Positions 38 to 22,363 of a stretch of 64,000 nucleotides of DNA are shown here, in pieces. A program made the position numbers and the translations under genes. The stretch lies in NCBI GenBank assembly GCA_024231025.1, contig JAAEQW010000341.1, positions 54,155 through 118,154 of the forward strand. The letters run 5' to 3'. This stretch comes from Candidatus Omnitrophota bacterium (GTDB lineage: Bacteria > Omnitrophota > Gorgyraeia > Duberdicusellales > 4484-171). Each line of letters begins with the position of its first letter. Position 1 is the stretch's first letter. Under the pieces are notes generated by a model that did no database searches, was not told where the DNA came from, and saw nothing but the letters and a program-made list of their open reading frames with translations.

Positions 38-223
38 CCTTAATATAACAATATACTGAAATCCAAAATTCGTCCGTGTCAATAATTAAGTATTGTGTCC
101 CCGGAATTTGCAGAGCTTGAATGGCGCAAGAAACAAAAAGTAACGCTTAAGCTTTCAGGGAAAAAAATTATCATTGAGGATTGGAAAAGATAAATAGCAA
201 AACTTTTGTTACGCAATACGCTT

Positions 224-1129: not shown

Positions 1130-1133
1130 ATAG

Positions 1134-2018: not shown

Positions 2019-2032
2019 TTTTTGCCGTTCTT

Positions 2033-5946: not shown

Positions 5947-6301
5947 TTTCCCCAGCGCGCGCGGAATCCGAATAAAATAGATTCATTTGGATTGATTTTG
6001 TTGAATAGATGATCGATTGAAAGAATTTTTTTGCCAGAAGATTTCTTTGGATTCCACGGGAAGAAAAAAGGGATTTTCGGACGAGGTCAAGGGTTTGTGA
6101 CCGGAGGCTACTGCCGTAGGAAATGCCGAGAACATTCCAAATTTATATTATTCAGACAGCGACGGCCTATGCGGCCGCCATTCCGATAAATGCCTACGTC
6201 ATTTATCGGCTAAATACCCCACCCTTTAAGGTAGCCCAACGATATCTTGAAGTTCCCCGTAGATTTTAAAATTAACTCTATCTAAAAAATAACCCCTAAC
6301 A

Positions 6302-7150: not shown

Positions 7151-7220
7151 ATACTATTCGCAAAAACCTCATGTTTCTTTAAATATTCCGATGATTACGT
7201 CGTGCCTTGCACCTAATCCG

Positions 7221-7886: not shown

Positions 7887-7937
7887 AATTTCCCCCTTCT
7901 TTCTTACTCAAAAGATTTTATCAACGGCTTACTAATT

Positions 7938-8147
7938 TTAAATTCGTTTCGTTCCTCGCCCCGTTAATTTGTCTATACTAACCCCCAAAGCATCTGCCAA
8001 CTTAATAACCGTCTCAATCTTAGGATTTTTAATTCCACCTCGTTCAATTTTTATAATGGTATTATAAGAAATTTCTGATTCTACAGCGAGCTTTTCTTGA
8101 GACCATCCTTTTTGCTTGCGAAGTTTGACTAAATTCTTCAGATACAT
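7938..8147 (-). CDS. XRE-family (Cro/cI-type) HTH transcriptional regulator
   Basis: LRKQKGWSQEKLAVESEISYNTIIKIERG...IETVIKLADALGVSIDKL is the canonical HTH_3 pattern. Confidence 0.75.
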   Translation of the reverse strand: MYLKNLVKLRKQKGWSQEKLAVESEISYNTIIKIERGGIKNPKIETVIKLADALGVSIDKLTGRGTKRI

Positions 8148-8452
8148 ATTGTTTGACTCCTTGGTAGTATTGTGATACAGTATTGCAATACTATATTGGA
8201 TTACCCCGTATTGCTTTATTCTGAGCTATTTTAACTCGTTTCTTAATAAAATCAAGGAGATATATGTATAACTTCAATTTCTACCGCCAAAGCATAAAAT
8301 TGGGAGCAATAATTGCTTTGATTATATTGGTGATACAGATAATTTCCCTTGCGAGATAACGGGAGGGGGCAAGCCCCTCCCCTACAAAACAAAATAATAA
8401 TCAATGGATCGGGCGTAAAAAAATCCCCCATCCTTTTGGATGGGGGCGATTC

Positions 8453-8489
8453 TTGAAGATATTTTTGAAAATTGAAGACTTTTTGAACA
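8453..8489. repeat. 37-bp direct repeat, copy 2 (identical to 1..37)
   Basis: Exact match to window start; preceded by GC hairpins at 8361..8385 and 8424..8446. Confidence 0.8.
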
Positions 8490-8590
8490 TTTGAGCATTT
8501 GAGCATTGGACCGCATTGCCCCATTGGATTTTCCAATGTTCTAATGATCCAATGTTCCAATGCTCTAGCCATTTTTTTCGATGAAAAAAT

Positions 8591-8607
8591 TGGCTCCCCG
8601 GGTAGGG
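8591..8607. repeat. 17-nt duplicate of the tRNA-Asn 3' end (candidate att site of integrated island B)
   Basis: TGGCTCCCCGGGTAGGG here is identical to 20812..20828 (reverse complement of the last 17 nt of the tRNA including CCA); lies ~150 bp from the serine recombinase gene end. Confidence 0.65.
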
Positions 8608-8720
8608 GCAGAAATTACCTTAATAAAAACAATGGGAATATTTCTGCACTTCCTCGGGCAGTAGCCCTCGGTCGCTCAACAGCTGCCTTCGGCAGAGTTC
8701 GAGACCAAACGGGGACATAT

Positions 8721-8762
8721 AAAATAAAAATCCCCCGCAAAATGCGGGGGATATTTTATTCA
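8721..8762 (-). terminator. rho-independent terminator downstream of serine recombinase gene (probably bidirectional)
   Basis: CCCCCGC-aaaat-GCGGGGG stem flanked by A/T runs on both sides. Confidence 0.6.
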
Positions 8763-10369
8763 TGGCTCCCCGAAGAAACTTCAGGAACAATATCTCCCCG
8801 GAGCACCTGAGTAATATCGCTTCTAAACCTTTTAGACACTATACCAACTTGAACCTTGTCATTTCCTATCTTGATGTGTTGTAAAATCCAATTCAGAATA
8901 AACCTTTTCTGATAAAGTTTAAGGTGATCTTTAAATATCTCATCGAAAGAGCCAAGTAACCGCTTAACATCACCCTCCTCTAAAGACTGTACCTTTACGG
9001 CATTGATCTCACGATTAAGATGATCTATATTATCCATCATCTTTCTACGCCTATCATCCAATTCAGATAGCTTTTGCTCCACGAATGTCCTGCCTTTATC
9101 GATATTCATAAGATTATCCATAACTTTCTTGGCTTTAGCATTCACACTTTCAAGCTCAACGGCAAACACGCGTTTTTGCTCTTTAAGGCTGGGCAGTTGC
9201 CTGCTGAATTTCTCGTTTAGCTTTTCAGTAATCTTATGGAGCATAAGAGGAGTAGAGACGGCTGATTGCGTAAGGCGTTGAACGGCTAATTCGAGTTCCC
9301 GCTCCGGAACCTTAAATTTACACTCATCATTTGTACAGTAATAATAATAGTAAACTTTTCCGCTCTTGCCGTGCCCATTTCTTCCTTCCATTCTTGCACC
9401 ACATTGATGACAGCAAAGCACACCATTAAATATATACGTGTGTTTTGTAGGCTTTGCGCCATTATTCCGATGTTTGTAATTTTCTTTCAAGAGTTGTTGG
9501 GTTTTTTGGAACTTGCTCTCGTCGATAATAGCCGGCCAAACAGCCTTGCAAGTTGAATATCTCATTTTTTCCGGCAAAGATTCTTGTTTTTCAGCTTTAC
9601 GTTTTTTATTGATCTCTTTCATCCCAATATACGCCTTGTTGCTTAAAATCTTCAATATTGAACTATAGCAAAATTTCTTTGCCGGATGATATCTGTCACG
9701 ACGGGAGGTGTACTCTTTTGATAAGTAACCTTTTTTATTTGCTATTATAGCAGTTCTGACAACTGAACCGTTTTCAAGATAGGTATCAAATAGGAAACTT
9801 ACAACTTTAGCCTCCTTTTTATTAGGGATGAGATAACCTTTTTTGTTTTTATCTTCATCATATCCCAACAAAGGAACACCGCCATTAAATAACCCTCGTT
9901 GAGCTCGCGCATAAAGCCCTGAGATTGTTCGCTCGGAACATTGCTCTCGTTCAAATTGGTTTAATGCTCCCATTATCGTAAGGAAACATTTGCCCTGCGA
10001 CGTTGTTGTGTCAAACTGTTCCTTCAGGCAAACAAAATCTACTTTATTTTTATTGAAATAATCAACCATATCCAAAAGATCCCTTGTTGAACGGCTTATC
10101 CTCGACAAAGCAACGCACAGAACAGCATTGATCTTACCATCCTGTATGTCAGACATCATTCTAAGATACTCTGGGCGATTTGTATTCTTAGCAGAAATAC
10201 CTCGATCTACGTATGTGTCTACAATCACCCATTTCTGTTTAGTTGAGCTTGATTTCATCCTGACGTAATCTCGAAGCATCTGTTCTTGATTCTTGAGAGA
10301 CCCTTCTTCCAATTTCGCCTGCTTCTCAGTACTCACGCGTTGATAAAGGCTACATCTTTTTATTTCCAT
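8756..10369 (-). CDS. large serine recombinase (serine integrase type)
   Basis: N-terminal resolvase catalytic domain (YQRVSTEKQ with catalytic Ser, VALSRISR), recombinase domain, Cys-rich zinc-ribbon region (CCHQCGARMEGRNGH...YYYYYC) and C-terminal coiled coil; 537 aa. Confidence 0.85.
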   Translation of the reverse strand: MEIKRCSLYQRVSTEKQAKLEEGSLKNQEQMLRDYVRMKSSSTKQKWVIVDTYVDRGISAKNTNRPEYLRMMSDIQDGKINAVLCVALSRISRSTRDLLDMVDYFNKNKVDFVCLKEQFDTTTSQGKCFLTIMGALNQFEREQCSERTISGLYARAQRGLFNGGVPLLGYDEDKNKKGYLIPNKKEAKVVSFLFDTYLENGSVVRTAIIANKKGYLSKEYTSRRDRYHPAKKFCYSSILKILSNKAYIGMKEINKKRKAEKQESLPEKMRYSTCKAVWPAIIDESKFQKTQQLLKENYKHRNNGAKPTKHTYIFNGVLCCHQCGARMEGRNGHGKSGKVYYYYYCTNDECKFKVPERELELAVQRLTQSAVSTPLMLHKITEKLNEKFSRQLPSLKEQKRVFAVELESVNAKAKKVMDNLMNIDKGRTFVEQKLSELDDRRRKMMDNIDHLNREINAVKVQSLEEGDVKRLLGSFDEIFKDHLKLYQKRFILNWILQHIKIGNDKVQVGIVSKRFRSDITQVLRGDIVPEVSSGSHE

Positions 10370-10381
10370 TTATGCCTCCTC

Positions 10382-10747
10382 TCATTTTCTGTACCTTTTC
10401 ATCTGCTGGGTAAGATCTACAATTATCCAGCCATCATTTAAACGCGTAGCTTTGTACCTCCCTATAGCAAATCCTGCTTCTATTGCTTGATTGACAAGAT
10501 CGCAGTTGTTAATTATTAGAGCGGAATCATCCATGCTATTCAAAAAGTAAACATCAGGATCATCTATCCACCCTTGTTTTTGAAAAGGAAAGACGCAAAT
10601 ACGACTATGTTCTTTTTGAAAGATAACTTTAGCCATATCAAACTCTCTAGAAACCCATCTCCCGCATCCTTTGCTCAAATAAAGATTCCCTGCATTCCTG
10701 TAACTGCAATAATACATATTGTTTCGTTCAATAATTGTCTCTATCAT
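10382..10747 (-). CDS. hypothetical protein (121 aa), co-transcribed with serine integrase
   Basis: ORF 12 nt upstream of the integrase gene; no motif recognised. Confidence 0.45.
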   Translation of the reverse strand: MIETIIERNNMYYCSYRNAGNLYLSKGCGRWVSREFDMAKVIFQKEHSRICVFPFQKQGWIDDPDVYFLNSMDDSALIINNCDLVNQAIEAGFAIGRYKATRLNDGWIIVDLTQQMKRYRK

Positions 10748-11032
10748 TTTTATGCTCCTTATGATTTTGTGTTATAAATAGAAATATCCCGTCAGCTATC
10801 AAATGGACTATTTCATCTTCATTTGGATCTGTTACCATTGCTGGATCATTACGTAGCATAAAGGCCTCCTCGTTTTCTTGCCTCTATATTGCTAGTTTCC
10901 CATACCAATAACAGACTAAAAAGCATCTGCTATCAGCAATCCAGCAAAACGATTATTCTTTCACTTCGGTATTTATGTCATGACTGACGGCAGGAAATAC
11001 CTTACTCGCTCGAATATCGCTGGCGATTATTA

Positions 11033-11254
11033 TTAAAGCTCTACTTTTTTAAACATCGTGGTTGCGAAGCTGTTTTTTGCGCTCTGAAGAGCTGCATCAA
11101 TCGCCCCGAACATTTTTTCAACTTGCTCTACTGAAAAGGCGTACGACTTGCGCTCCGAACAATTTGCCAGGATTTCTAATTGCTCGATTATTCTGTTCGA
11201 TCTTTTCGTTGCTATCCGCTTGAACCTTTCTTGTGGTGTTTCGCTCATCGACAA
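11033..11254 (-). CDS. small 73-aa protein, paralog of 5058..5279
   Basis: See 5058..5279; heads the integrase operon. Confidence 0.5.
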   Translation of the reverse strand: MSMSETPQERFKRIATKRSNRIIEQLEILANCSERKSYAFSVEQVEKMFGAIDAALQSAKNSFATTMFKKVEL

Positions 11255-11395
11255 TCTCCTTCCGTTAATATAACGCTAATACTCAAGATATGCTCTATAT
11301 CTCATCTGCAATGATTATATCGTATATATATAATCATGTCAAGATTATTTTTATAACTTCAGGATAGCCTGAGATTGCTCTAGATTGAGGATTTA

Positions 11396-11475
11396 TTAGC
11401 AAAAAAGGTAAAATCCTTTACTCGGTTAAAAACCACCCTACATTTGAATGTAGACGAATTAGACAGCTATTCTGT
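11396..11475. repeat. ~75-nt repeated intergenic element, copy a (hairpin GGTAAA-n4-TTTACC plus CTACATT-TGA-AATGTAG palindrome)
   Basis: Shares AAAAGGTAAAATyCTTTACy...CTACATTT.AAT..AGACGAATTAGA.AGCTA.TC with copies at 12205..12280 and 18655..18715. Confidence 0.6.
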
Positions 11476-11541
11476 TATTCTTTTACGATCACACCCCTCT
11501 TTATCATTTATCTTAAAGCCATGCTGTGATAAAATGACATC

Positions 11542-12186
11542 ATGATTGATTATAACTGGATCTTCAGTGCATTGGTCCAATCCTTAGCCGCAATGATTGG
11601 GGTAATAGGCATGTTTGCGGTATATAGATTGCAAACACAAGAAAAAATAATCGAGAAGAAATTTGAAAAGTTTCGTATATTCTTAGAAGAAAATACAGGA
11701 ACGAAGATAGATAATCCTACGGAAGAAAGAATTATTGAAAAAGCCAAAGGTGTTAGACAGAAATACCAAAAAATCATTAACGATTCCCCAAATAACCTTA
11801 ATGTTATGAAAAATACACAAGGATTCACCGATAGTGCAATGGAACAAGCATCAAGCATAGCCGATGTGGGGATAGAAATATTTAAAAAACATACCATAGA
11901 TATTGATAACTTTAATGCATCTATAGAGCAACATAAAAATAAAAATAAAGATATATCTAAACAAGCTTTAGATATAGTAGGTCAACTAGTTTTTCTGTTT
12001 GGTTTAAGCGTGTTAGTGCTTATATTTAGTAAAGTACTTACTGTGACAAATACTGAGTTGTTTGAACCGGGAACAATGACAGTAGTATACGGAGGGCTTG
12101 TTGTTCTAACTATAGTCTCTATTTATCTTGTCATTTTGTTGCGTACTATATATGTTTTCTGCAACACCTGTTTTTCTGTTAAGTAA
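11542..12186 (+). CDS. hypothetical membrane protein (214 aa)
   Basis: N-terminal TM (IFSALVQSLAAMIGVIGMFAVY) and two C-terminal TM segments; flanked by repeat copies a and b. Confidence 0.5.
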   Translation: MIDYNWIFSALVQSLAAMIGVIGMFAVYRLQTQEKIIEKKFEKFRIFLEENTGTKIDNPTEERIIEKAKGVRQKYQKIINDSPNNLNVMKNTQGFTDSAMEQASSIADVGIEIFKKHTIDIDNFNASIEQHKNKNKDISKQALDIVGQLVFLFGLSVLVLIFSKVLTVTNTELFEPGTMTVVYGGLVVLTIVSIYLVILLRTIYVFCNTCFSVK

Positions 12187-12204
12187 CTGATTTTAAAATA
12201 GACT

Positions 12205-12280
12205 TAAAAGGTAAAATTCTTTACCCTATCAAAAGCTACTCTACATTTAAATACAGACGAATTAGAAAGCTACTCCTATC
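12205..12280. repeat. repeated intergenic element, copy b
   Basis: See 11396..11475. Confidence 0.6.
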
Positions 12281-13053
12281 TTCTTTTGTGCTTTGAGGAA
12301 TAATCGCTTTGAGACAATGGGCGGGTGTGTTCCTTGGACATGAAAATTACCAAAGCTGGTTTCACCATAATACATCTTATTTCTTAAAACATACTTTAAA
12401 GATTGAATCTGAAATTGTTTACCTCGTTTAGTGGTTGCTCGTAACTTATTAAGCTTACGAACAATGGTTGTATATTTATGTCCCTTAACTAGCCACCTAA
12501 ATATTCTGACTACGTTCTTAGCTTCAGTTGGTTTAATCTCGAGCTTCTTGCCAACCTTAACATAACCAAAAGGTATCGGTCCAGACCCACGTTCACCGTT
12601 CTTAGCGTTATTAATTCTCCCGTCTTTAAGGCGGGCAGTAATAACGTCCTTTTCTAATTCAGCAAAAACATCAGCAATACGCTTAAAAGCTTTCTGTAAA
12701 GGGTCATCTAGATTATATTCTGGGTCTACTACAGAATTAATCTCGATGTCATGTTTCTTGAATTGTGTCTCAAGCCAAAGAGATACAGTCAACTCGCGAC
12801 TCAACCTATCTTGTTTGTAAACAATGACATTATCAATAAGACCATCTTCGCAATCCTTTAATAGTCGCAACAAACCCGGCCTTTCTTTTATCGCACCACT
12901 AATACCCTTATCTTCATAAAATCTGTTAAGCTCCAGATTCTTATCCTTACAATATGCCTCAATCTTATCTCTCTGGATTTCTAATCCTTCGCCGTTTTCG
13001 ACTTGATTAGCAGTTGATACTCTGAGATACCCTACATTATATCTAGATTGCAT
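12262..13053 (-). CDS. serine recombinase (resolvase/invertase-type catalytic domain plus recombinase domain, 263 aa)
   Basis: GYLRVSTANQ catalytic motif, VYKQDRLSRE; shorter than the 537-aa integrase (no zinc ribbon or coiled coil). Confidence 0.8.
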   Translation of the reverse strand: MQSRYNVGYLRVSTANQVENGEGLEIQRDKIEAYCKDKNLELNRFYEDKGISGAIKERPGLLRLLKDCEDGLIDNVIVYKQDRLSRELTVSLWLETQFKKHDIEINSVVDPEYNLDDPLQKAFKRIADVFAELEKDVITARLKDGRINNAKNGERGSGPIPFGYVKVGKKLEIKPTEAKNVVRIFRWLVKGHKYTTIVRKLNKLRATTKRGKQFQIQSLKYVLRNKMYYGETSFGNFHVQGTHPPIVSKRLFLKAQKKIGVAF

Positions 13054-13221
13054 AAGAATTACCCTCCCAATACAATAGATAAACCATCGAGGAATTAAAA
13101 TGTCAAGTTTCGTGTTGAAATAGTTGCCTAAGGCAGATCAGAAACAGTGTCAGGGAGAGTGCATATTGCAAGATGGGTAATGATTTATGGCTGGAAAAGT
13201 TAAAGATTTTTAAAAAAATGT

Positions 13222-14406
13222 TTAGTTCTTGCCGATAACGTATTTTTTAAAATAGTTCTTAGTACCTCCGAAGTACGTTTTAACCCTAGCAATACCAAAA
13301 AAATCATAATATCGCTTAGTAGTGGATCCATCCTGTGCTATGTCTCGTTTTTTAGCATATCGTGCATAAAATGGCTTGTCTTTTGGAGATAGAACGACAT
13401 CAATGCATGCGCTTGGTCGTATCGCCCGTCTAAGAAGCGTTCTTAGGTGATAGTCGGCTTCTGGCAAAGAATACCCCACAAAAACAACCCTATCCGCTGT
13501 GGCTAATTCTGCGTAAGCATTATACCATACTGTCCTTATATGAATATTATCAAAATTCTTTTCAAAGGTCGGCGTAATAATATACGGTTGCAAGACGTGT
13601 TTGTTCTTTTTTCTTCTTACTGTGTGCCCTAGACAATGCTTACAAAAACTATCTTGCACGTACAGTTTTCGCCCCTCATTTGCCCCTAACCCTGTATACA
13701 TCCTGTTACAGTTGGGACAAAAAAGCCAATTAATGGAGCCATGTAGTTTAAGAATTTTTATTCTGTTTTTTTCCTCTTGATTAACAGGCGGAATGGCTAT
13801 CCCGTCACAATCTTCCTTTAGTCGCAAAATGCAACAACAAAAATCTGTGCTGATTTGTTGCTTTTTGTTTTTTGTTTTCTTGGTAATTTTATACACAGAG
13901 TCTTCTAGCAAAGAGTCCCAATTCAAAGATATTACGCTGAGCCTATTTCCTCTTGACCGTTTTTTTATCGTCTCTTTAACAAAATGACTTGCTAAAGAAT
14001 CATAAAATTTATCACCGGTAGTTTCTGAACGTAAAGAAGCTTCATGGAATACAGTTAAAATAAGCCGTTTCAAATCGTCTCTAATACTGTCTAACTCTTT
14101 CCAAGAATAATCAAAACAATTACGTCGTTGCGCTATGGTTTGATCTAGCAATGTAAATAAGTCTTCTAGACTAGGTAGGGCGTTGGGATAAAATATCTGA
14201 TCAATAAATTCTCTGAGCTCTTTTCTCCGAACAAGACTTTCGCCATACAATATATCAAACTTTTGGGAAAAAACTTTAGTTAAAATGAGTCGCTGCAAGG
14301 GAAACCCCGCACCATACGAGAATCCTGCTCCGAATACATAAACTGTCTTGGTAGGTAGGGCTGTTCTCACTTCAGTTTGAAATGTTGGTTTAGCACCTTG
14401 GCCCAT
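13222..14406 (-). CDS. SIR2_2-family sirtuin-like protein (defence-type SIR2)
   Basis: N-terminal Gly-rich NAD loop VYVFGAGFSYGAGFP, LHGS motif (KLHGSINW), zinc ribbon CPNCN...CKHC, Rossmann strand VVFVGYSLPEADYHL. Confidence 0.7.
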   Translation of the reverse strand: MGQGAKPTFQTEVRTALPTKTVYVFGAGFSYGAGFPLQRLILTKVFSQKFDILYGESLVRRKELREFIDQIFYPNALPSLEDLFTLLDQTIAQRRNCFDYSWKELDSIRDDLKRLILTVFHEASLRSETTGDKFYDSLASHFVKETIKKRSRGNRLSVISLNWDSLLEDSVYKITKKTKNKKQQISTDFCCCILRLKEDCDGIAIPPVNQEEKNRIKILKLHGSINWLFCPNCNRMYTGLGANEGRKLYVQDSFCKHCLGHTVRRKKNKHVLQPYIITPTFEKNFDNIHIRTVWYNAYAELATADRVVFVGYSLPEADYHLRTLLRRAIRPSACIDVVLSPKDKPFYARYAKKRDIAQDGSTTKRYYDFFGIARVKTYFGGTKNYFKKYVIGKN

Positions 14407-15788
14407 ACAATACAGTGTCGAACACCGTCTGGCCCAAGAACTTTTTCTAGAGTGCCTTTAGTTTTATTAAGATTTCTAACAATTTCTTTTATGGTCGGCG
14501 TGTTATGATACTCCCGTTTCTTGCACCACATATAATGTGTCACAGTCTTGTTTTTTGTCTCGGTAGCCGGGTATGGCTTGCCTTTTGCAGAATGCTTCAT
14601 TTCTCCATATTCTTTAAATTCACTTTCCGGATTATTTTTTATAATATCCTTACACATTTTACAACTACAAACCGTTTTATAATATCCTGTGATTGTTTTT
14701 GAACCCCCCACAGCACGAAGGGCACGAAGGGCATCGCGGAAAAGAAGTCGCGTGTGTAGTTGTGGAAAATAAAATTTTGCCGCAGGAAAGCCTCCACCCA
14801 CAGGAACAACTCCACGATATTCACCGTATTCTAAACTATGTGCGACCCCTACTAGATTTGGCGTTATCCCGCTTTTGCCTAAAGCCACGGAAAAAAATCC
14901 CCCGTACAGATTTGCTACTGGAGCAATTTGCCCTAGCCTATTAATTAAATTAATTAAGGCTTCTAGCTTTATGGCCGAAGCATCTTGTTCATACAAATCG
15001 TCTACCCACAATAAGAAAATGTCCGGCTTAACTTTTGCATATTCTTCTACGAGCATATCAATTTTTTCATTATCTATTAAGATATCCTGAGATATAACAA
15101 TTTGGCTTGCCAAAGGTTTCTTTTTTGCCTTTAAAATTTTCTTAGAAATTTTAGAACACATTACATTTACCTGCAACCACTTTTTAAATTCACTTTCGAA
15201 TAAGTAAAAATATGGTGCTACAATAGTTGTCGGAGAAAACATATCCGACACTTTTAGCCCGATATATCTGTAATACTTTGCAGCATCGGATCCTTCCAAT
15301 TCCCTAGAAACGGTTTCCAGCTGAAAGTTAATAACTCTCTGACAAAACCCCCGTGTTACTGACGAATCTTTAAAATCTTTGGGAATAAGTGGTCGTTTTT
15401 TATTAAGTATGCTCGTTTCTACAGGCTCACCGAAGGCATCTATTAATTTTTTAATTGATTTCTTTATTTGCCCTTTTGATTTTTCAGATTGAGACTCTAT
15501 AAGGCTCAAATCATGCTGAAAGGCATGCGTTTGAGGGTCTATTATATACGGCTTATTTTTTGCCTTTGTGGAAATAAACATAGCTATCGCGCTTGTCATA
15601 TATGCCATAATGTTTGCATTCACAATAAGCTGATCATAGGTGGCCAAAAGACTGCCTAGCAAAAACTTCTGATCAGCGGCTGTTCCAAACCGTACTAAAT
15701 GAAATCCTGCTATTGGCTTCATGCTTCCTGAACGTCTTGTTTGTTTTTTTGGATATACTTTTTTATCCATGTTTTTCCTACTCGCCAA
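14367..15788 (-). CDS. hypothetical protein with weak tRNA-guanine transglycosylase (Tgt/DpdA)-like features
   Basis: C-terminal CSCKMCK...H (CxCxxC..H) zinc motif as in TGT; LYGGFFSVALG and LVGVAHS resemble the Tgt GGLAVGE and LMGVGKP segments; weak, by eye only. The 40-nt overlap with the SIR2 gene suggests the true start or stop may differ. Confidence 0.35.
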   Translation of the reverse strand: MASRKNMDKKVYPKKQTRRSGSMKPIAGFHLVRFGTAADQKFLLGSLLATYDQLIVNANIMAYMTSAIAMFISTKAKNKPYIIDPQTHAFQHDLSLIESQSEKSKGQIKKSIKKLIDAFGEPVETSILNKKRPLIPKDFKDSSVTRGFCQRVINFQLETVSRELEGSDAAKYYRYIGLKVSDMFSPTTIVAPYFYLFESEFKKWLQVNVMCSKISKKILKAKKKPLASQIVISQDILIDNEKIDMLVEEYAKVKPDIFLLWVDDLYEQDASAIKLEALINLINRLGQIAPVANLYGGFFSVALGKSGITPNLVGVAHSLEYGEYRGVVPVGGGFPAAKFYFPQLHTRLLFRDALRALRAVGGSKTITGYYKTVCSCKMCKDIIKNNPESEFKEYGEMKHSAKGKPYPATETKNKTVTHYMWCKKREYHNTPTIKEIVRNLNKTKGTLEKVLGPDGVRHCIVWAKVLNQHFKLK

Positions 15789-16138
15789 ATTTCTCTAGAG
15801 CGTGGTGCTGATATAACCTCTTCAAATGGCCACCGTCCGTCCTCGCGATAAAACTTAAGACCAACTCCTGCTGATTTGAGGGCTCTCCTCATTTCTTGCG
15901 TAATTTTGCGCTTGGGCATACACACGTAAGAAAAGTCTGCTCCTAATTTATGGTCGTATGATTGTCGTATCGCTCTGCGCCAATTGAAAAGCTTAAACTC
16001 TATGGCAACAACTGTATTATTTTCAATATAAACTAGATCCGCAAACCTCCCCAACACAGGAACCTCACGGCACACATCCATTGAGAAATGTTGCGTCAAT
16101 CGTTTATAAGCACTATCCACAAGGGTTCGTTCACACAT
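15719..16138 (-). CDS. small PD-(D/E)xK-fold nuclease-like protein
   Basis: GRFADLVYIEN...VVAIEFKL gives a D...ExK motif in a beta-strand context; 139 aa; the overlap with the upstream ORF suggests an internal start. Confidence 0.5.
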   Translation of the reverse strand: MCERTLVDSAYKRLTQHFSMDVCREVPVLGRFADLVYIENNTVVAIEFKLFNWRRAIRQSYDHKLGADFSYVCMPKRKITQEMRRALKSAGVGLKFYREDGRWPFEEVISAPRSREIWRVGKTWIKKYIQKNKQDVQEA

Positions 16139-16724
16139 TGCGCTTCTTAAAAATCCTTTCCGCTATTTTGGAGTTTGTTGCCATTTTAGGATATTTTGTA
16201 TAAACATATCTCAACAGAGCATACAAAGAGATCTCTAAGCAACGACATTTAAAAGTATGAACACCCTCCCATTGCTCTGCTGTTAAATTTCCCAAATTGC
16301 CATCTTTAACAAAATTTAAACCATTGTTCGTTAAAGAAAATTCAACTGCGTTATTGCGCTCGTTATCAGAACCACCTGCTATTCCTGAACTCACCTGCCA
16401 ATATTCATACTCACACATATCTTCTTCTGCCTCCTTGTCCGAACACGAAGGCCGCGGATTTACAAAGCCAAGGTTAACTAAAAACTCTAGGTCTGCGTAG
16501 ATTTGATCCGCAAAAGGTCCATAGTCATACGGCTGGAAGTCAGGAAAAGCAGAGTCCGGAATGGCTTTTTCCAAATTGAACTTAGCACGGATTTCTTTCT
16601 GAAACAAGAAAACCATTTTTACCATACGAATGCGTGTTCGTATCGGTTCGTTCTTTTGCCCCTTATATCCTTTGGCATAAAGCAATAGCATTATAATATC
16701 TTTTGTGCTTGTTATTTTCGCCAT
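16131..16724 (-). CDS. hypothetical protein (197 aa), first gene of the SIR2 operon
   Basis: ORF overlapping the downstream gene by 8 nt; no motif recognised. Confidence 0.45.
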   Translation of the reverse strand: MAKITSTKDIIMLLLYAKGYKGQKNEPIRTRIRMVKMVFLFQKEIRAKFNLEKAIPDSAFPDFQPYDYGPFADQIYADLEFLVNLGFVNPRPSCSDKEAEEDMCEYEYWQVSSGIAGGSDNERNNAVEFSLTNNGLNFVKDGNLGNLTAEQWEGVHTFKCRCLEISLYALLRYVYTKYPKMATNSKIAERIFKKRNV

Positions 16725-16891
16725 GTTTCCCTTTGCATGTTCTTGCCTCTATTTTTATTATAAATCCGTTTCCGGCATAATCAAGAACTTCTTGGCCCGG
16801 CATTTTCGCTGTTTTTGATCTCCACACTACACCTTATATAACAAAGGGTTTGTTTTATTGACACCTGTTTCATTCTTACTATAATAAAGCC

Positions 16892-17701
16892 ATGAAAGAA
16901 ATCGATACTTATTTATTCCACTACGCAGAAAAACAATATGACACCCAAACTGCTTTACTAAGAGACATAAACACAAAGATAGCCAATGTGCTTGTTGCTA
17001 TAGGTTTTTTGTTAACCCTCACTGCCTATCTGGCTAATGCTATATTTAAATTACAATTAGAGCCATGGTTGCTCTTACCACTCTTAACCCCCTCGATCCT
17101 GGGTGCATATAGCTTCTTAAGGGCTCTAGGCAGAGTTATACATTTTTTGAGGCTCCAAGAATATAAGCTACCGTCTATGGAGGCAGACATTCAAAAGGCA
17201 ATCATAGATCTGCAAAAGAAAAACAAAGATGAAACAAACGAAAGTGATATTCTTCAGGATCTTACCCAAAATTATATTACAGCTTTTAATGATAACATGA
17301 CTTCGGGATCAGAAAGGCACAAGCTTTTCAAGATTCTCGTCAACTATATTCGTAACGGGATTATATCAATTATTATATCTTTTGTGGTTTTATTTTTTAT
17401 AAAAACACCCACCTGTCTATTGACCGGTAAAGAAAAAAGGGAGGAAGTAAAAATGATAAGGAACATGGACCAGGAAAAAGAAGAAGAGCAAAAACAAGAC
17501 AATGAGCCTAACAACGAAAAAAATAATAGTGCCCAGCCTCAGGAACCGTCACAGGAACCTGAAAAAACTCAACAACCGTCTGTTCTCGGCAATCCAACGC
17601 TAGTGACAGCGTCTGATCATTCTACAGATTCTGAAACGGTGAGTTCTGACGATAATAAATCAGAAAGCAAGCCAGAAAACGAATCAGAAAAACAGGAATA
17701 A
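16892..17701 (+). CDS. hypothetical membrane protein with acidic low-complexity C-terminus
   Basis: TM segments (VLVAIGFLLTLTAYLANAIF; IISIIISFVVLFFI); C-terminal E/Q/N/S-rich tail. Confidence 0.5.
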   Translation: MKEIDTYLFHYAEKQYDTQTALLRDINTKIANVLVAIGFLLTLTAYLANAIFKLQLEPWLLLPLLTPSILGAYSFLRALGRVIHFLRLQEYKLPSMEADIQKAIIDLQKKNKDETNESDILQDLTQNYITAFNDNMTSGSERHKLFKILVNYIRNGIISIIISFVVLFFIKTPTCLLTGKEKREEVKMIRNMDQEKEEEQKQDNEPNNEKNNSAQPQEPSQEPEKTQQPSVLGNPTLVTASDHSTDSETVSSDDNKSESKPENESEKQE

Positions 17702-17826
17702 AGGCATATGTCTGAGCGCAATAAGACGTATTAACTACTCCTGCCACGGGTTAAAATTCAGCTATCAAAGTAATGGTACAAGTATCCATAAACCCATTAC
17801 CCTGATGTTCCGTATTTACAAAATAC

Positions 17827-18000
17827 TTATACAGATCCTCTCAAAAGCAAGTCAAACACGCAAATAACTGTTACAATTATTGTAATAATCGCGAGAAGTT
17901 TCACAACGATGCCTTCTTTTCGGTCTCCCGACCTTGTCAAAAACGAAATCATTCTCGTAGTCACATAAAACCCTATCATCATCCCGATTGATGGTATCAT
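17827..18000 (-). CDS. unannotated small hydrophobic protein (57 aa), possible type I toxin or holin-like peptide
   Basis: ATG at 18000 preceded by AGGAGG 6 nt upstream; translation MIPSIGMMIGFYVTTRMISFLTRSGDRKEGIVVKLLAIITIIVTVICVFDLLLRGSV; not in the ORF track (<60 aa). Confidence 0.4.
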   Translation of the reverse strand: MIPSIGMMIGFYVTTRMISFLTRSGDRKEGIVVKLLAIITIIVTVICVFDLLLRGSV

Positions 18001-18027
18001 CTACAACCTCCTTTTGTGTGATTCATG

Positions 18028-18444
18028 CTAATTCTGCCATGCGGTTAGTTTCCCGTCTTCAAAATAATAATAACTACCGTTATAAACTACTTGTTCAAAA
18101 ACACCATAAGACGTAACAGTCCTGTTAATTTCAGGATAAGACCACAACCCCATGACTACCTTTAGATCCGATTTGGACATCCCGATCCATACCTGGCCTT
18201 CGCAAACTCTAATTTTTGTCTGTTCATCTGCAAATAATTCTGGGTGCTTCGCTACATACACTTCTCTGCGATATTGATAAATACTGACTTTATCACCTGT
18301 AATGGGTCCTGTATAACTAACAAGTCCACACCCTATGCAAAATAATGTAGCTACAAAAATCAATATTATTGAAACTTTCTTCTCCATAATTCCTCCTTCC
18401 GCCCTCCCCAAAAAAAGGGGGGAGCGCATTTCTACTACCGACAA
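18028..18444 (-). CDS. probable lipoprotein/secreted protein (true start probably MEKKVSII... near 18384)
   Basis: Signal-like IILIFVATLFCIGCG; a GC hairpin at 18401..18428 lies upstream of the likely start. Confidence 0.5.
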   Translation of the reverse strand: MSVVEMRSPLFLGRAEGGIMEKKVSIILIFVATLFCIGCGLVSYTGPITGDKVSIYQYRREVYVAKHPELFADEQTKIRVCEGQVWIGMSKSDLKVVMGLWSYPEINRTVTSYGVFEQVVYNGSYYYFEDGKLTAWQN

Positions 18445-18654
18445 CCGTTAAGTAAATCCGATAGAGCTGCATTCTCCCCGTAATTACAGGAACCAACAAC
18501 TCCACCACACTTAACGGTTAACAGGGCCAAACCCTGTCTTATGGCAAAATTAAATTACACCTAATTATATGAACACTTAAAGTTTATCACCCTCCTTACT
18601 ATCAGACAAGCTAAAAACTATTTGAGCCTACATTACCCCTAGATTGGGTTTTTA

Positions 18655-18715
18655 CAGATTTAAAAGGTAAAATTGTTTACCTACCTATTAAAGTCGCTAC
18701 ATCGATAAACTAAAG
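18655..18715. repeat. repeated intergenic element, copy c (partial)
   Basis: AAAAGGTAAAATTGTTTACC...CTACAT shared with copies a and b. Confidence 0.5.
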
Positions 18716-18741
18716 CCATTCTGCCTTATTCGGTATTACTT

Positions 18742-19920
18742 TTAGTAACATTCTCCCCAAGTTTTACCTATCTTACAAGAAACGGTAAATTTCATACCTT
18801 TAATTTCTATCTCCATGATCTCTTTAATTCTTTGCAAGCTCTTATCAATTTCAAGATCGGGAACTATAACAAGTGCTGAATCATGAACTGTAGCGCTTAT
18901 CTTGAAACCTTCACTATGAAGTTTAACTAGGGAGAATTTAAGAATATCTGCAGCAGTGCCCTGAATGCAATGGTTAACAGCCCGCCTTTCAGCTTTCTTA
19001 CGATCAGTTATGTTGGAAGCATTTATATCAAGAAGAAATCTCTTACGCCCATAATAAGTTTCAGTAAAACCTGTAGAGCGTGCTTTCTTAATTGTTTCTG
19101 ACTTAAAACTTTCTATCTCAGGTATTTTAGATTTATATACGTCCATTAATTCTTGGGCTTCGCTTATTGATATATGTAGGTTTCTGGCTAGACCATTGGC
19201 TTCTTGTCCATACGCCAATCCGAAATTAAGCGTCTTGCCTAGCTTACGTTCTTTATCAGTAACGGAATCATACAGAACCCCCTTCATGTCAGCAACAACT
19301 TTCCTATGTAAATCCAACCCTTTAGCCCAACACTCCTTGAAATACACATCATCAGAGAGAGCGCTAAGTATTCTCAGTTCAAAGCTATTATAATCTGCTA
19401 TGATGAACGAATGACCACCATCTGCGCATATGATACCTCTAGCCACTTCAGGGATACTTTGGAAACTATAGCTTTTTGTGTATAATCGTCCTGACATGCA
19501 TGTATCTATGTACCTACAGAATATCTTACCTTTAGCTTTATCAGTAGCTTTATGAATTGCCTTCAGAGAGCTTAAGAGTTTCTCTAGGTTGCGGTAGGTT
19601 GCAATTTTATCGGTAAGGGGGTTATTGACGCCTTTAAGCACTCTCCGAGAAGTGCTGTACCGGCCTGTTCTCGTCCTCTTAGGATTAACCCCTAAAACCT
19701 TGAATAGAATATCGGCAACATCCCTTGAACTATTGAAGTTAACCTCACCTTGAATACCGAGTATTTGCTTGAGTTCTTGTTCAATTCCGTTCTTCTCTTG
19801 CAAGGTTTTCTGGATTAATTTATCAAGTTTAGGAAAATCTACGTTTAGACCGCGTTGTTCCATCGCTTGCTTAACGTTAATCATGTCGTGCTCTAGGTTT
19901 TCTATAATTTTACTATGCAT
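18742..19920 (-). CDS. stand-alone family-A (Pol I-like) DNA polymerase domain, no exonuclease domains
   Basis: Motif A IIADYNSFELRILSALSDD, motif B RKLGKTLNFGLAYGQ, motif C TVHDSALV, plus RRAVNHCIQGTAADILK; 392 aa covers the thumb/palm/fingers only. Confidence 0.8.
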   Translation of the reverse strand: MHSKIIENLEHDMINVKQAMEQRGLNVDFPKLDKLIQKTLQEKNGIEQELKQILGIQGEVNFNSSRDVADILFKVLGVNPKRTRTGRYSTSRRVLKGVNNPLTDKIATYRNLEKLLSSLKAIHKATDKAKGKIFCRYIDTCMSGRLYTKSYSFQSIPEVARGIICADGGHSFIIADYNSFELRILSALSDDVYFKECWAKGLDLHRKVVADMKGVLYDSVTDKERKLGKTLNFGLAYGQEANGLARNLHISISEAQELMDVYKSKIPEIESFKSETIKKARSTGFTETYYGRKRFLLDINASNITDRKKAERRAVNHCIQGTAADILKFSLVKLHSEGFKISATVHDSALVIVPDLEIDKSLQRIKEIMEIEIKGMKFTVSCKIGKTWGECY

Positions 19921-20015
19921 TTTCGTAATGGTTTAATGTGTTGGGGACCCCCTACCCCCAACATCAATATATAAACCATCGCATTTTCTGCGTGTCAATA
20001 AAACATTTGAAATAG

Positions 20016-20480
20016 TTACGGCCTAACCTTTGAGTTTATAATATAAAACTCTTGTGCGACTAGATCTTTTGTGCCGATTTTCTTTATCAGGTAATACGAA
20101 GCTCCCCCTAACGGGTTATATCCTTCAACTAACGAAGTACCTCCGAAAAACTTTTTTGCTTTATTGTTGATTATCTCTGCATGCTTGGGATCGATTCGAT
20201 CGATAAGAGCGTGAATATGTATTCCGGCTGACGATGTACTGTGCCTTTCATAAAACACAAGACACCGAACAAAACTATCAAAGTATATTTCGTCATTCTT
20301 ATTGAGATATTTTATGAACCGCTTAAACTCTTTCTTGGCTGTCTCGTAAGAGACAAACTTTCTAAAATTAGCGTTGAAAAACAATGTCCACTCATAATCT
20401 CCCAACAAATACCGCCTATACGCCTCTAGAATTATCTGCCTCTTGTTCCATGCAAGGTTATCTTCGAGTTTAATCTTCAC
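20016..20480 (-). CDS. small HUH-endonuclease Rep-like protein
   Basis: HUH motif GIHIHALIDRI and downstream YY motif (GGASYYLIKKIG) typical of rolling-circle Rep or relaxase catalytic core; 154 aa. Confidence 0.5.
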   Translation of the reverse strand: MKIKLEDNLAWNKRQIILEAYRRYLLGDYEWTLFFNANFRKFVSYETAKKEFKRFIKYLNKNDEIYFDSFVRCLVFYERHSTSSAGIHIHALIDRIDPKHAEIINNKAKKFFGGTSLVEGYNPLGGASYYLIKKIGTKDLVAQEFYIINSKVRP

Positions 20481-20757
20481 AATTTACCTCCTGTCTTTAG
20501 ACAATAAAAAAGGGATACCAGAGTGCAAACTAAGGTATCCCTTATGATTAATAAAACCGATTTTTGATGATTGGCTACTTGGGAATTCGCCATCTTTTCG
20601 CCTCTCATTAATTATACTTGTCAGTGTTGCCACTAGGCATAAATAAAAAAAGGCAGCCGCGTTTTCTTGCGACTGCCTTTTAATTTTCCTCTGAAATTTC
20701 TACTTTTATACGCCTTTTTGCGTTAATAACAATGGCGTTGTGATTCTTTCTGCCCCT

Positions 20758-20803
20758 ACAAAAAGAAACGGGAAGCGTTAGCCATAATACTAAACGCTTC
20801 CCG
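20758..20803 (-). terminator. rho-independent terminator just downstream of the tRNA gene
   Basis: On the minus strand CGGGAAGCGTT-loop-AACGCTTCCCG followed by TTTCTTTTTGT. Confidence 0.55.
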
Positions 20804-20811
20804 ATATTATT

Positions 20812-21232
20812 CTGGCTCCCCGGGTAGGGCTCGAACCTACGACCTATTGGTTACAGTTACCCTCTAAGTTTCCTTAAAGACTGGACTATATCATTACCGT
20901 CCCGCCATGGGCGGGATACGGTATCAGGCGCTTCGACCCCGAAATTTCGGGGGCTACTCCCTCGCGGGATAGTCTCTGCACGTTCTCCGAATAATCGGAG
21001 CTTCGCTCAGGATTGCCATATTCTTACGAACTTAGGTTTCCCTGAATTCACCTGATTCTTCACTCTACAGTTTCCTGTAGAGGCTGCCATGCACCGAGAT
21101 CCTTCGACTCAGTCGACCTAAGGTCTCCTTCACTCAGGATCAATTCGGCTATATAATTTTTCTGCCGTTTTTGGCCTGAAAAATTATAGTCTCATTGACA
21201 GCCAACCGCTCTACCAATTGAGCTACCGGGGA
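20812..21232 (-). tRNA. tRNA-Asn(GUU) interrupted by a 345-nt group I intron in the anticodon loop (exons 21198..21232 and 20812..20852); CCA encoded
   Basis: 5' exon UCCCCGGUAGCUCAAUUGGUAGAGCGGUUGGCUGU and 3' exon UAACCAAUAGGUCGUAGGUUCGAGCCCUACCCGGGGAGCCA fold as a standard cloverleaf (U8, A14, G18G19, TTCGAGC T-loop; anticodon loop CU-GUU-AA). The splice follows U35 and the intron ends with G. Confidence 0.75.
20853..21197 (-). ncRNA. group I self-splicing intron within the tRNA
   Basis: Intron contains R-like element GUGCAGAGACUAUCC (plus 20965..20980 as reverse complement) and S-like element GAUAUAGUCC (plus 20882..20891), which can form P7 GACUA/UAGUC. Candidate IGS GCAG pairs with exon end CUGU (U.G at the splice site). 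No intron ORF. Confidence 0.65.
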
Positions 21233-21319: not shown

Positions 21320-21730
21320 CTATTTCTTTTTTATATTAGCCAAAACCCACTCGAATATTCTTTTAGTAGATTTTGCTACATCGTGGGCTTCTTTTTCGTG
21401 AATACTACGGCAGTCATATTGGATGGCGTTCTTTTTGGCAATAATCCTTTTCAGAGCAACGCTTTTTTCTTTGTCACCAGGTAAAGATACAGTCGCCATA
21501 AGGTCGCAAACATCTTTATGGTCTTGAGAGATGGACCTTGTGCCTAATCTATAGACGCAGATAGCATCAGCTGAAGAAATAACGCATTGTATGGCTAATG
21601 TTCCTACGGCATTGTAGTTCTTATGGTTCAAGGCAGAAATCATTTCTTCGTAATTATCTTCGGCCTTTTTAAGATATTGGTATGATGCCGCGGGATCTTC
21701 TTGTCTGGTTCTTATATTCTTTGGTCCCAT
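21320..21730 (-). CDS. HEPN-domain protein (toxin of a HEPN/MNT pair)
   Basis: R-x5-H motif (RSISQDH) in a helical context; 136 aa; directly downstream of the MNT gene. Confidence 0.6.
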   Translation of the reverse strand: MGPKNIRTRQEDPAASYQYLKKAEDNYEEMISALNHKNYNAVGTLAIQCVISSADAICVYRLGTRSISQDHKDVCDLMATVSLPGDKEKSVALKRIIAKKNAIQYDCRSIHEKEAHDVAKSTKRIFEWVLANIKKK

Positions 21731-21733
21731 ATG

Positions 21734-22363
21734 TTATATCCAGTCCAAAGGATCTTCTCCGTAAATCACCGAGTAAGATTTTATAAGTGACGCAACAGGA
21801 GAAAGCCTCTTTTTTAAACGGTTAATAAATTCTTTTTTGGTTTTGATATAGGGATCAAGGCGTACCTGAAAATATTCATCAAAATCATAAGATATTTTTT
21901 CAATAAAAATTTCTTCTATGAGGGGCAAGTCTTTTATGTTATTTGCAACAATAGCTATATCAACATCGCTTTTTTCGGTGGCTTGCTTTGTGTGTCGGCT
22001 CCCATAAAACATAACTGAAGCTAGTTTGTTGGAAATTTTATGTTTTCGAATAGCCGCAGTTATGAAGCTTATAGCATCTTTTAAAAAAGAATCTTCTTTA
22101 CGAAAGGCAGGCATTAGTATTGTTTTTACTAATCGACTTTTGACGTTTAATCGGTATAGATGAAGTTTTCCTTTTATTTCGCGGTTAAGAATACTATACT
22201 CATATAGCTCTTTAAGCGCAGCGTGAGTTGCAGGAGGGCTAAGCTTAATTGCTCTAGAGATTTCCCGACCGCAGGCCATAAAATCTTCGCGATAAAAAGT
22301 AAAGAATCGCACGATTTTAACTTTAGCGTTTGTATTAAGAATGTTATCTAGTGATTTCTCCAT
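21734..22363 (-). CDS. minimal nucleotidyltransferase (MNT) with N-terminal wHTH (antitoxin-like)
   Basis: FYGSRHTKQATEKSDVDIAIV gives the GS...D.D polymerase-beta-like NTase motif. Confidence 0.6.
   Translation of the reverse strand: MEKSLDNILNTNAKVKIVRFFTFYREDFMACGREISRAIKLSPPATHAALKELYEYSILNREIKGKLHLYRLNVKSRLVKTILMPAFRKEDSFLKDAISFITAAIRKHKISNKLASVMFYGSRHTKQATEKSDVDIAIVANNIKDLPLIEEIFIEKISYDFDEYFQVRLDPYIKTKKEFINRLKKRLSPVASLIKSYSVIYGEDPLDWI

Follow-up and report, generated by a model that had tools for sequence, protein, structure and literature searches.

Among islands integrated by serine recombinases, tRNA or tmRNA genes, hereafter t(m)RNA genes, served as the target of only 4.9% (14/297), compared with 44.5% for tyrosine integrases, and this use was described as not reported before and as requiring experimental proof (Mageeney et al., 2020); tRNA is never mentioned by Durrant et al. 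(2022). The ~12-kb islands at the ssrA gene of Dehalococcoides encode a 540-aa CcrB-like serine recombinase (DsiB) next to the tmRNA gene and a smaller one (DsiA), have 20-bp repeats starting in the T-loop, and occur at ssrA as tandem islands and remnants (McMurdie et al., 2011; PMC3146451). According to Hackl et al. (bioRxiv 2020.12.28.424599), large serine recombinases (LSRs) are found in 27/937 tycheposons and related elements, and tyrosine recombinases in 910/937. Here we analyzed a 64,000-nt stretch of a Candidatus Omnitrophota genome (assembly GCA_024231025.1, contig JAAEQW010000341.1, positions 54,155 to 118,154), called the window throughout, which holds what we consider, with good confidence, to be a ~12.05-kb site-specific integrative element placed at the 3' end of a tRNA-Asn(GUU) gene by its own LSR. 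A preliminary description of this DNA had stressed how rarely serine integrases are found at tRNA genes, which is broadly right in view of the above percentages, yet overstated, as the Dehalococcoides ssrA islands and some tycheposons precede it.

The element resembles the DsiB/DsiA islands in its size (~12 kb), its position at a t(m)RNA 3' end, its module of a large (537 vs ~540 aa) and a smaller serine recombinase, its variable cargo, and its 3'-end direct repeats; as for DsiB-type islands, the clade of its LSR includes Dehalococcoidia members and tmRNA-targeting members. It differs in that the target is tRNA-Asn, that the LSR is distal and co-oriented rather than adjacent and convergent, and that the core shared by the two attachment (att) sites is 7-13 nt long and lies in the LSR stop region (10 nt in the window), in place of a 20-bp repeat. 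The wider LSR clade does show the DsiB-like adjacent convergent layout, a comparison made by description. The small recombinase of the window has 263 aa and a Recombinase domain, whereas DsiA is PinR-like and ~200 aa long, and the ssrA islands carry RecF/ParB/Mom-like genes where the window has a Rep-like protein and a polymerase-only PolA (mini-PolA). CcrB and CcrA are the best NCBIfam matches of the two window recombinases, with scores below the family cut-offs (CcrB, 171 vs 900 bits; CcrA, 96 vs 700 bits), and the staphylococcal cassette chromosome SCCmec likewise combines paired serine recombinases with insertion at the 3' end of a conserved gene; however, it targets rlmH (orfX), both of its Ccr proteins are large, and it has no replication module. 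The phage integrases Bxb1, phiC31, A118, and SPbeta share the Resolvase, Recombinase, and zinc ribbon architecture, and the short att cores found here fit their 2-bp crossover and little attB/attP identity, but they are only ~25-29% identical to the window LSR and mostly target protein-coding genes. Tycheposons are also tRNA-integrated, with replication genes of their own and adaptive or defence cargo, but they use polymerases, primases, and helicases for replication and were defined in marine Prochlorococcus; a Rep and mini-PolA module was not found in the excerpted text of that paper, nor did we find one described as a replication module in the literature. Hence, t(m)RNA-targeting islands with dual serine recombinases were already known, and what is new here is that tRNA-Asn is the target, that the genes are co-oriented and the core falls within the LSR stop region, that an open reading frame (ORF) spans attP, and that Rep and mini-PolA are paired. 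The parts of the locus that concern integration are listed below, where numbers preceded by L denote the loci used for comparison.

20813..21232, minus strand: tRNA-Asn(GUU) gene, the integration target (Rfam, ARAGORN, splice reconstruction, alignment to intron-less tRNA-Asn)
21232-21198, minus strand: 5' exon of tRNA-Asn
21197-20854, minus strand: group I intron
20853-20813, minus strand: 3' exon of tRNA-Asn
20813..20822, minus strand: attL core, 10 nt CGGGGAGCCA in common with the LSR stop region (shared cores in relatives)
20680..20812, minus strand: P' arm of the element (conserved in L169, L170, L171, and L002)
8756..10369, minus strand: LSR (integrase), 537 aa when integrated (Pfam)
8763..8772, minus strand: attR core CGGGGAGCCA within the LSR stop region, the distal junction with the best support (L001 homology break, anatomy of relatives)
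8608..8762, minus strand: 155-bp spacer, probable remnant of an older element
8591..8607, minus strand: 17-nt copy of the tRNA 3' end (repeat search)

Pfam bears out the two serine recombinases of the preliminary description, of 537 and 263 aa, both with the catalytic motif RVST. The larger one matches Resolvase (PF00239, 130 bits), Recombinase (PF07508, 57 bits), and Zn_ribbon_recom (PF13408, 28.2 bits, cut-off 25.3), and its R11, V12, and S13 are invariant over 33 aligned homologues. A protein of a Candidatus Omnitrophica metagenome-assembled genome is 100% identical to it, whereas look-ups of the exact LSR protein and of one encoded by a flanking gene gave no record. The family was sampled as 80 loci from species-representative genomes, and adjacency to t(m)RNA genes was counted in the 66 loci with 300 nt or more of sequence past the LSR stop. 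In 49 of these 66 loci (74%), a convergent tRNA or tmRNA gene overlaps the LSR stop or lies no more than 50 nt from it, whereas chance tRNA adjacency is far below 1%. The overlaps between the LSR ORF and the t(m)RNA gene have fixed lengths, namely 42 nt (many tRNA-Asn), 22 nt (tRNA-Met), and 15 nt (others). The C-terminus of the convergent-type LSRs is ...QTSI-W-L-P, in which W-L-P is encoded by the complement of the tRNA CCA end and acceptor strand. The hosts are Omnitrophota, Planctomycetota, Dehalococcoidia (relatives 38-44% identical to the window LSR), Elusimicrobia, Thermoanaerobaculia, and Bdellovibrionota, the last including one complete Bdellovibrio genome. Because the association in 49/66 loci is far beyond chance, this LSR clade, judged by the position of its genes, targets the 3' ends of t(m)RNA genes over several phyla. 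The closest relatives of the window LSR (e.g., L002 and L004) have tRNA-Asn, cargo, and LSR all co-oriented, unlike the convergent majority. We also noticed that at the loci with the 42-nt overlap (L006, L011, L015, L020-L023, L028-L032, L035, and others) the LSR stop codon TAA is the complement of tRNA-Asn U35-U36-A37.

These counts bear on the view that the serine recombinases are resolvases or invertases, that some other enzyme now absent, such as a tyrosine integrase, carried out the integration, and that the tRNA link has nothing to do with the LSR. The 3' ends of tRNA genes are indeed the classic targets of tyrosine integrases, and a 17-nt repeat is of a length typical of those enzymes. 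However, no tyrosine recombinase is encoded between the repeats, and the LSR clade is tied to t(m)RNA in 49/66 loci through overlaps that are base-precise and clade-specific. The family adjacency data effectively refute this view, which we regard as exceedingly improbable. Two parts of the preliminary description, integration at the tRNA 3' end and the LSR as the integrase, are upheld by this family-level evidence, and the gene positions support the interpretation of the locus as a genuine integrated element at the tRNA-Asn 3' end.

The exact 17-nt duplicate of the tRNA 3' end that had been reported is real, and its second copy lies at 20813-20829, one base off the 20812-20828 given before. 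Frequent recurrence by chance, which had been considered, was checked in the window: TGGCTCCCCGGGTAGGG occurs exactly twice (8591-8607 and 20813-20829) with no chance match expected, even when two mismatches are tolerated, and with mismatches allowed the repeat grows to 23/28 nt. It is the reverse complement of the final 17 nt of the minus-strand tRNA (21232..20813), which cover the last T-loop base, the 3' strand of the T-stem, the 3' strand of the acceptor, the discriminator, and CCA. Default ARAGORN reported no tRNA anywhere in the window, as the gene is split by a 344-nt group I intron inserted between anticodon nt 35 and 36; with introns allowed, it returned c[20813,21232] with a misplaced splice site and an anticodon read as Thr. 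The intron matches Rfam RF00028 at 21106..20862 (101 bits, E=4e-25, gathering score 50). When the group I splice rules were applied (the 5' exon ends in U and the intron ends in G), the spliced product was a canonical 76-nt tRNA-Asn(GUU) that aligns with the intron-less tRNA-Asn genes of relatives, in agreement with the Asn identity named earlier; the intron, the strand of the tRNA, and a third tRNA-end copy, TGGCTCCCCG at 8763-8772, were absent from the preliminary description. Introns of 221 and 518 nt sit at the same tRNA-Asn position in two other Omnitrophota, L033 (11600-11896) and L016 (1880-2473); default tRNA finders overlook the window gene or call it Thr.

On the other, non-element side of the tRNA, RecR and DnaX form a conserved host backbone. 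The adjacency of tRNA-Asn and RecR is kept across loci while the 3' side of the tRNA is different in every locus, and the element is therefore assigned to that variable 3' side. The tRNA end is intact at one side (21232-20813), and displaced copies of the 3' terminus lie at the other (8763-8772 and 8591-8607). Left of the 17-mer, window positions 1-8590 encode a Dam-like methyltransferase, a C-protein-like helix-turn-helix (HTH) protein, and unknown proteins, with no recognizable core genes in that interval; these surroundings suit an integration hotspot.

The third copy of the tRNA terminus (CGGGGAGCCA; TGGCTCCCCG; TGGCTCCCC at 8763) is located inside the last LSR codons, where CGGGGAGCCA encodes ...S-G-S-H and the LSR end reads TCG GGG AGC CAT GAA TAA. 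The preliminary description had the integrase gene ending ~150 bp from the distal repeat, which is accurate (the LSR stop is at 8756, 148 bp from the repeat), and it took the 17-nt repeat as the end of the element, which does not hold up against the relatives. Between the window and L001, whose LSRs are 81% identical, nucleotide homology runs through ...TCGGGGAGCCA and ends immediately after. L002 and L004 each have a single distal copy of the tRNA terminus, of 7 nt (GGAGCCA) and 8 nt (GGGAGCCA), respectively; it lies in the last LSR codons with a terminator hairpin after it, and no copy of the 17-nt class occurs anywhere in these two loci. L169/L163, two views of one contig, represent a fourth complete element, 17.8 kb long, with a 13-nt core common to the tRNA and the LSR stop and no longer tRNA-end copy. 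L003, L163, and L164 end like the window at the LSR stop; beyond the core, the sequence is different in every locus and opens with a terminator hairpin, as expected of a tRNA trailer. In the window's subclade, attR thus repeats 7-13 nt of the tRNA terminus within the final codons of the LSR, and host sequence comes next.

At the tRNA side, the sequence after CCA is conserved (nnnTRATRTCGGGAAGCG...CGCTTCCC...TAGGG) in elements with LSRs ~55% identical and with different hosts, and it is therefore element DNA, the P' arm. The arm carries a conserved hairpin, GGGAAGCGTT...AACGCTTCCC, and a T-run, which is a new terminator for the restored tRNA. Since the L001 homology break and the cores of the four complete elements coincide in the last LSR codons, we place the distal end at 8763-8772, and there is a strong likelihood, as far as comparison of sequences goes, that the LSR-mobilized element spans ~8763-20822 (12.05 kb) with the crossover within the shared core. 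The overlap of the cores, together with L164 and L003, which lack CCA after GGGGAG, suggests that the crossover is probably in GGAG, at the acceptor end and discriminator. Dyad symmetry around the core of the reconstructed attP is weak. Across the family, only L066 (12 nt) and perhaps L060 (10 nt) have a long tRNA-derived direct repeat, a frequency not above the reverse-strand control. As for further tRNA-derived copies in the window, GGGGAGCCA on the plus strand at 5889 was considered as a fourth one and dropped, since ~0.5 chance occurrences of a 9-mer are expected in DNA of this length. A separate observation concerns L001, in which a 13-nt antisense tRNA-Asn terminus, TGGCTCCCCCGCG, follows the LSR core and terminator (2733-2800) just upstream of lytB and pairs with the core as a 10-nt perfect inverted repeat (GGGGAGCCAA/TTGGCTCCCC).

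The 17-mer itself lies 156 bp past the LSR junction and has no counterpart in L002, L004, or L169/L163. The 155-bp spacer that separates the two starts with TGAATAAAATATCC, a hairpin (TGAATAAAATATCCCCCGCATTTTGCGGGGG), and a T-run, and in this it resembles the P' arm of the family, GAATAATATCGG plus hairpin. A motif of ~75 nt in the spacer (8620-8696, minus strand; core GACCGRRGGCTACTGCCNNAGGAARTGC) recurs inverted at 6077-6150 (plus strand), outside the element, and the pair scores 63 vs 27 +/- 4 in shuffles. The 17-mer is probably the displaced tRNA end of an earlier integration. In such a tandem accretion, the present element would have displaced an older one at this tRNA, of which almost everything but the two ends was then deleted; the tandem islands and remnants documented at Dehalococcoides ssrA support such a history. 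The two copies of the ~75-nt motif also bracket a 2.6-kb segment with p282, p221, an HTH gene, p106, and the 17-mer.

Alternatively, the element could extend from 8608 to 20812 and be bounded by the 17-nt repeat, with the 17-mer as the active attR core and the CGGGGAGCCA at the LSR end merely a conserved feature of the gene. The implied junctions are ...CCCTACCCGGGGAGCCA joined to ATTTTTTCATCG for attB, and ...GGTAATTTCTGC joined to CCCTACCCGGGGAGCCA and then to GAATAATATC for attP. The exact and non-random nature of the repeat speaks for this placement, as do the Dehalococcoides ssrA islands, whose serine recombinases are of a related type and whose 20-bp repeats start in the T-loop, like the 17-mer. 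In addition, a perfect 13-nt inverted repeat, GTAGGGGCAGAAA (8602-8614 vs 20747-20759), connects the 17-mer flank with the P' arm; 0/500 shuffles reach 13 nt, and the other complete elements have only 7-8 nt. On the opposite side, homology with L001 ends at the 10-nt core and not 156 bp further, L002, L004, and L169/L163 have a short core at the LSR stop only, the sequence after the core is locus-specific and begins with a terminator hairpin like a tRNA trailer, and the 155-bp spacer shares a motif with window DNA outside the element. We consider this placement quite improbable and leave it some weight because of the 13-nt inverted repeat, which is unexplained. An inversion of 12 kb between the two arms of that repeat was also considered as the source of the co-oriented layout and was rejected because inverting the segment does not recreate the overlapping convergent geometry.

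With the distal junction in the last LSR codons, attP can be rebuilt as the LSR 3' end, the core, and the P' arm. This was done for four complete elements, and in each of them the LSR ORF lengthens across the rebuilt attP by 34-55 codons. In the window, the P' arm read in the LSR frame yields a 44-aa tail, QNNIGKRLVLWLTLPVSF...EISEEN and stop. In the window, L169, L170, and L171 (4/4), the LSR frame alone is open, for 43-45 codons with the stops falling within two codons of each other, and the other frames of these four arms contain 2-6 stops each. The four tails align without gaps (QNNIGKRLVLWLTLPVSF... in the window, then QSDVGKRIVLRLTLPVHL..., QSDVGKRMVLSIALPFCF..., and QYDVGKRLTLWLTLPVHL...); the second codon position is the least variable (85 differences vs 115 and 124), and 18% of the codon changes are synonymous vs 12% and 9% in the control frames. 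L002 and L004 have a related motif (AILWLSFPIEVK and FYLWLTIPIEVK) in frame too, despite a different reading phase at the core. Between the window and L169 tails there are 6 synonymous and 24 non-synonymous changes, which lend no support for selection. Taken together, the rebuilt sites make it reasonably likely that integration severs a conserved C-terminal tail of ~44 aa from the integrase. In L175, a viral contig from IMG/VR, an LSR end at ~7560-7600 continues into 13 nt that match the antisense tRNA-Asn terminus, TGGCTCCCCGGGT, and the next 1.7 kb are non-tRNA DNA; this may be attP in its unintegrated state in a relative of the convergent type.

Integrase genes that span attP are known from Mx8 IntP and the SSV1-type systems, in which integration changes or splits the coding sequence, and all of these enzymes are tyrosine recombinases. 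A review covers the SSV-type cases (PMC8371274). The window element is similar in that attP lies inside the integrase gene and the coding sequence would be altered on integration; it differs in having a serine recombinase, which would lose no more than a tail of ~44 aa. In a literature search, neither an ORF spanning attP nor the loss of a tail on integration was found reported for serine integrases.

Between the two junctions, the window encodes the following.

20016..20480, minus strand: HUH-type Rep-like protein, 154 aa, motifs IHIHALI and YYLIKK by eye
18742..19920, minus strand: mini-PolA, family A DNA polymerase, 392 aa (PF00476)
18028-18444, minus strand: 138-aa lipoprotein-like protein (ORF list)
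16892-17701, plus strand: 269-aa membrane protein with a low-complexity tail (ORF list)
13222..16724, minus strand: four-gene cassette, candidate defence system as cargo, with genes for proteins of 197 aa (16131-16724), 139 aa (15719-16138), 473/467 aa with a tRNA-guanine transglycosylase (TGT) fold (14367-15788), and 394 aa, SIR2-like (13222-14406)
12262..13053, minus strand: small serine recombinase, 263 aa, Resolvase and Recombinase domains, without zinc ribbon, RVST
11403..12287, no strand: secondary insertion with a 214-aa membrane-protein gene (11542-12186, plus strand)
11033-11254 and 10382-10747, minus strand: p73 and p121

These genes follow a backbone order of tRNA-Asn, P' arm, Rep (154-167 aa) or an AAA+ protein, mini-PolA, variable cargo, small serine recombinase, p73, short ORFs or p121, and LSR, which is seen in the window, L164/L168, L163/L169, L170, L171, and partly L001. 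The preliminary description listed a PolA-like polymerase and an HUH Rep. The former is confirmed by PF00476 (274 bits, cut-off 34); only positions 484-888 of the Pol I model are matched, and the protein consists of the polymerase domain only, without the 3'-5' or 5'-3' exonuclease domains. Its clade is tight, with ~65 clusters at 55-76% identity and then a fall to ~35% for canonical Pol I, and it shares the element with the LSR in L168/L164, L169/L163, L170, and L171; the lengths of its contigs also agree with those of LSR relatives. For the Rep, the Pfam match is weak and the HUH and Y motifs were recognized by eye; PHROG and NCBIfam gave no matches, and homologues occupy the same position beside PolA in L170 (51% identical) and L171 (34%). 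The small serine recombinase has homologues in the same position in L001, L163, L164, L170, and L171 (50-77% identical). Downstream of it, p73 is 39-50% identical in L161-L164 and L170, and p121 is 22-30% identical in L001, L161, and L170; neither matches the family libraries, and they may be candidate directionality factors or regulators. An 82-nt direct repeat (11403-11484 and 12206-12287, 79% identical) brackets the 214-aa gene, which is oppositely oriented and breaks up the module of small serine recombinase, p73, and LSR that is contiguous in L163 and L164.

The SIR2-like gene of the preliminary description is present (Pfam SIR2_2, 28.9 bits; weak PADLOC SIR2 and PDC-M19A matches), and no complete system in PADLOC was matched by the cassette. 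Cassettes of the same make-up (~195, 145, 460, and 400 aa) recur across phyla (L165 4999-8582, L166 4979-8612), and their neighbours in Scalindua and an actinobacterial metagenome-assembled genome are further defence genes. The 467-aa protein has no Pfam match, and phmmer with the 473-aa form (p473) found nothing among PDB sequences. Its AlphaFold model has a predicted local distance difference test (pLDDT) score of 93, and the best PDB fold matches are tRNA-guanine transglycosylases, at a Foldseek probability of 1.0; CxCxxC...H is invariant in the family. By this model, the family, which is unannotated, has a TGT-like fold, and the relation is at the level of the fold only. Pfam gave no matches for the 269-aa membrane protein and the 138-aa lipoprotein-like protein, and no phage structural genes were found in the element in Pfam and PHROG searches. 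The cargo varies by element: a Type I restriction-modification (R-M) system and ThsB-TIR in L163/L169, a Type III-like R-M system in L164, and GmrSD and MmeI-like genes in L171.

From these parts, we propose that integration would proceed by conservative serine-recombinase exchange at a dinucleotide within GGAG, between an attP made of the LSR 3' end, core, and P' arm and an attB made of the tRNA T-arm and acceptor, core, and trailer. Excision is predicted to restore an attB of CCCTACCCGGGGAGCCA joined to TGAATAAAATATCC (longer form, ...GAGCCCTACCCGGGGAGCCA joined to TGAATAAAATATCCCCCGC...) and an attP of GTTTCTTCGGGGAGCCA joined to GAATAATATCGGGAAGCG (longer form, ...GAAGTTTCTTCGGGGAGCCA joined to GAATAATATCGGGAAGCGTT...). 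In the excised circle, the LSR ORF would cross attP and gain the ~44-aa tail, which integration would remove, giving two integrase isoforms, of 579 and 537 aa. By analogy with the pairs CcrA/CcrB and DsiA/DsiB, the small serine recombinase may work together with the LSR, and p73 or p121 may set directionality. The circle would be replicated by the HUH Rep and the polymerase-only PolA in a rolling-circle-type manner, and the variable middle would be defence cargo, here the SIR2-like/TGT-fold cassette.

Several observations weigh against this proposal. No empty site or circular junction was found in the metagenome and viral-contig scans. The metagenome scan with the core and P' arm, GGAGCCAGAATRATRTCGG, was swamped, returning 79 loci that nearly all carry an unrelated coding motif (...YPMGARMMSG...), with only L121 and L141 relevant; the viral-contig scans for the core and P' arm gave 0 hits, that is, no window-type attP, and those by LSR family only convergent-type relatives 41-42% identical. 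GC content is ~37%, flat over the island and both flanks, and gives no compositional support. The Rep-like protein matches PF23343 below the threshold (19.4 bits, cut-off 27.8, E=1.3e-3), and the substitution pattern of the tail is only weakly coding-like, the four-sequence analysis being modestly supportive. Finally, the 13-nt inverted repeat between the 17-mer flank and the P' arm is significant, is unexplained, and is not predicted by the model of an older scar.

Some of these points would also fit a fossil, that is, the same integration, now immobile, with recombinases kept for another role or decaying. Such a state would agree with the lack of an excised form in the metagenome and viral-contig scans, with the insertion of the 214-aa gene that splits the recombinase module, and with a composition fully ameliorated to that of the host. 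Yet neither recombinase ORF is truncated and the catalytic motifs of both are preserved; the two att junctions and the complete P' arm with its open tail-coding frame are likewise undamaged, and no backbone gene is missing. We think a fossil unlikely and favor an element mobilized by its own LSR.

Other features of the window lie outside the element. On the 5' side of the tRNA, a HEPN/nucleotidyltransferase (MNT) pair is encoded at 21320-22363 (minus strand), and a homologous pair is found just past the LSR in L002 (11772-12769). The segment at 5577-5797 (plus strand) is ORF-free, has a GC content of 0.44 vs 0.37, and folds into a closed multi-helix RNA, with a minimum free energy of -114 vs -95.6 +/- 5.7 kcal/mol (z = -3.2; minus strand, z = -1.3); it is a candidate non-coding RNA with no match in Rfam at E<=1. 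The 452-aa protein encoded at 3703-5061 (minus strand) has two C-terminal domains of the RNA polymerase alpha type and a segment of sigma-70 region 4, and its gene lies in an operon-like run with that of a GHKL-ATPase protein, beside the Dam-like methyltransferase. A single ORF of 6747 aa occupies 43665-63908 (minus strand), and the title of a preprint reports very long proteins for Omnitrophota (bioRxiv 10.64898/2026.06.07.730766).

Serine integrases are widely used genome-engineering tools and are thought to avoid tRNA genes. The family described here, a coherent clade with 74% of the sampled loci on a t(m)RNA gene and with base-precise geometry, makes the question of tRNA targeting directly testable, and it supplies predicted attP/attB pairs in highly conserved, universally present targets. 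More tentatively, and as a conjecture that may well prove wrong, a t(m)RNA-dedicated LSR clade may have built its genes across attP such that the C-terminus is swapped on integration and acts as a state sensor favoring integration over excision, and its elements may be distinct self-replicating defence carriers with an HUH Rep and an exonuclease-less mini-PolA. The apparent split of the integrase tail by integration suggests a form of directionality control undescribed for serine integrases, and in little-studied phyla, Omnitrophota and Planctomycetota among them, the elements look like carriers on which defence systems travel repeatedly.

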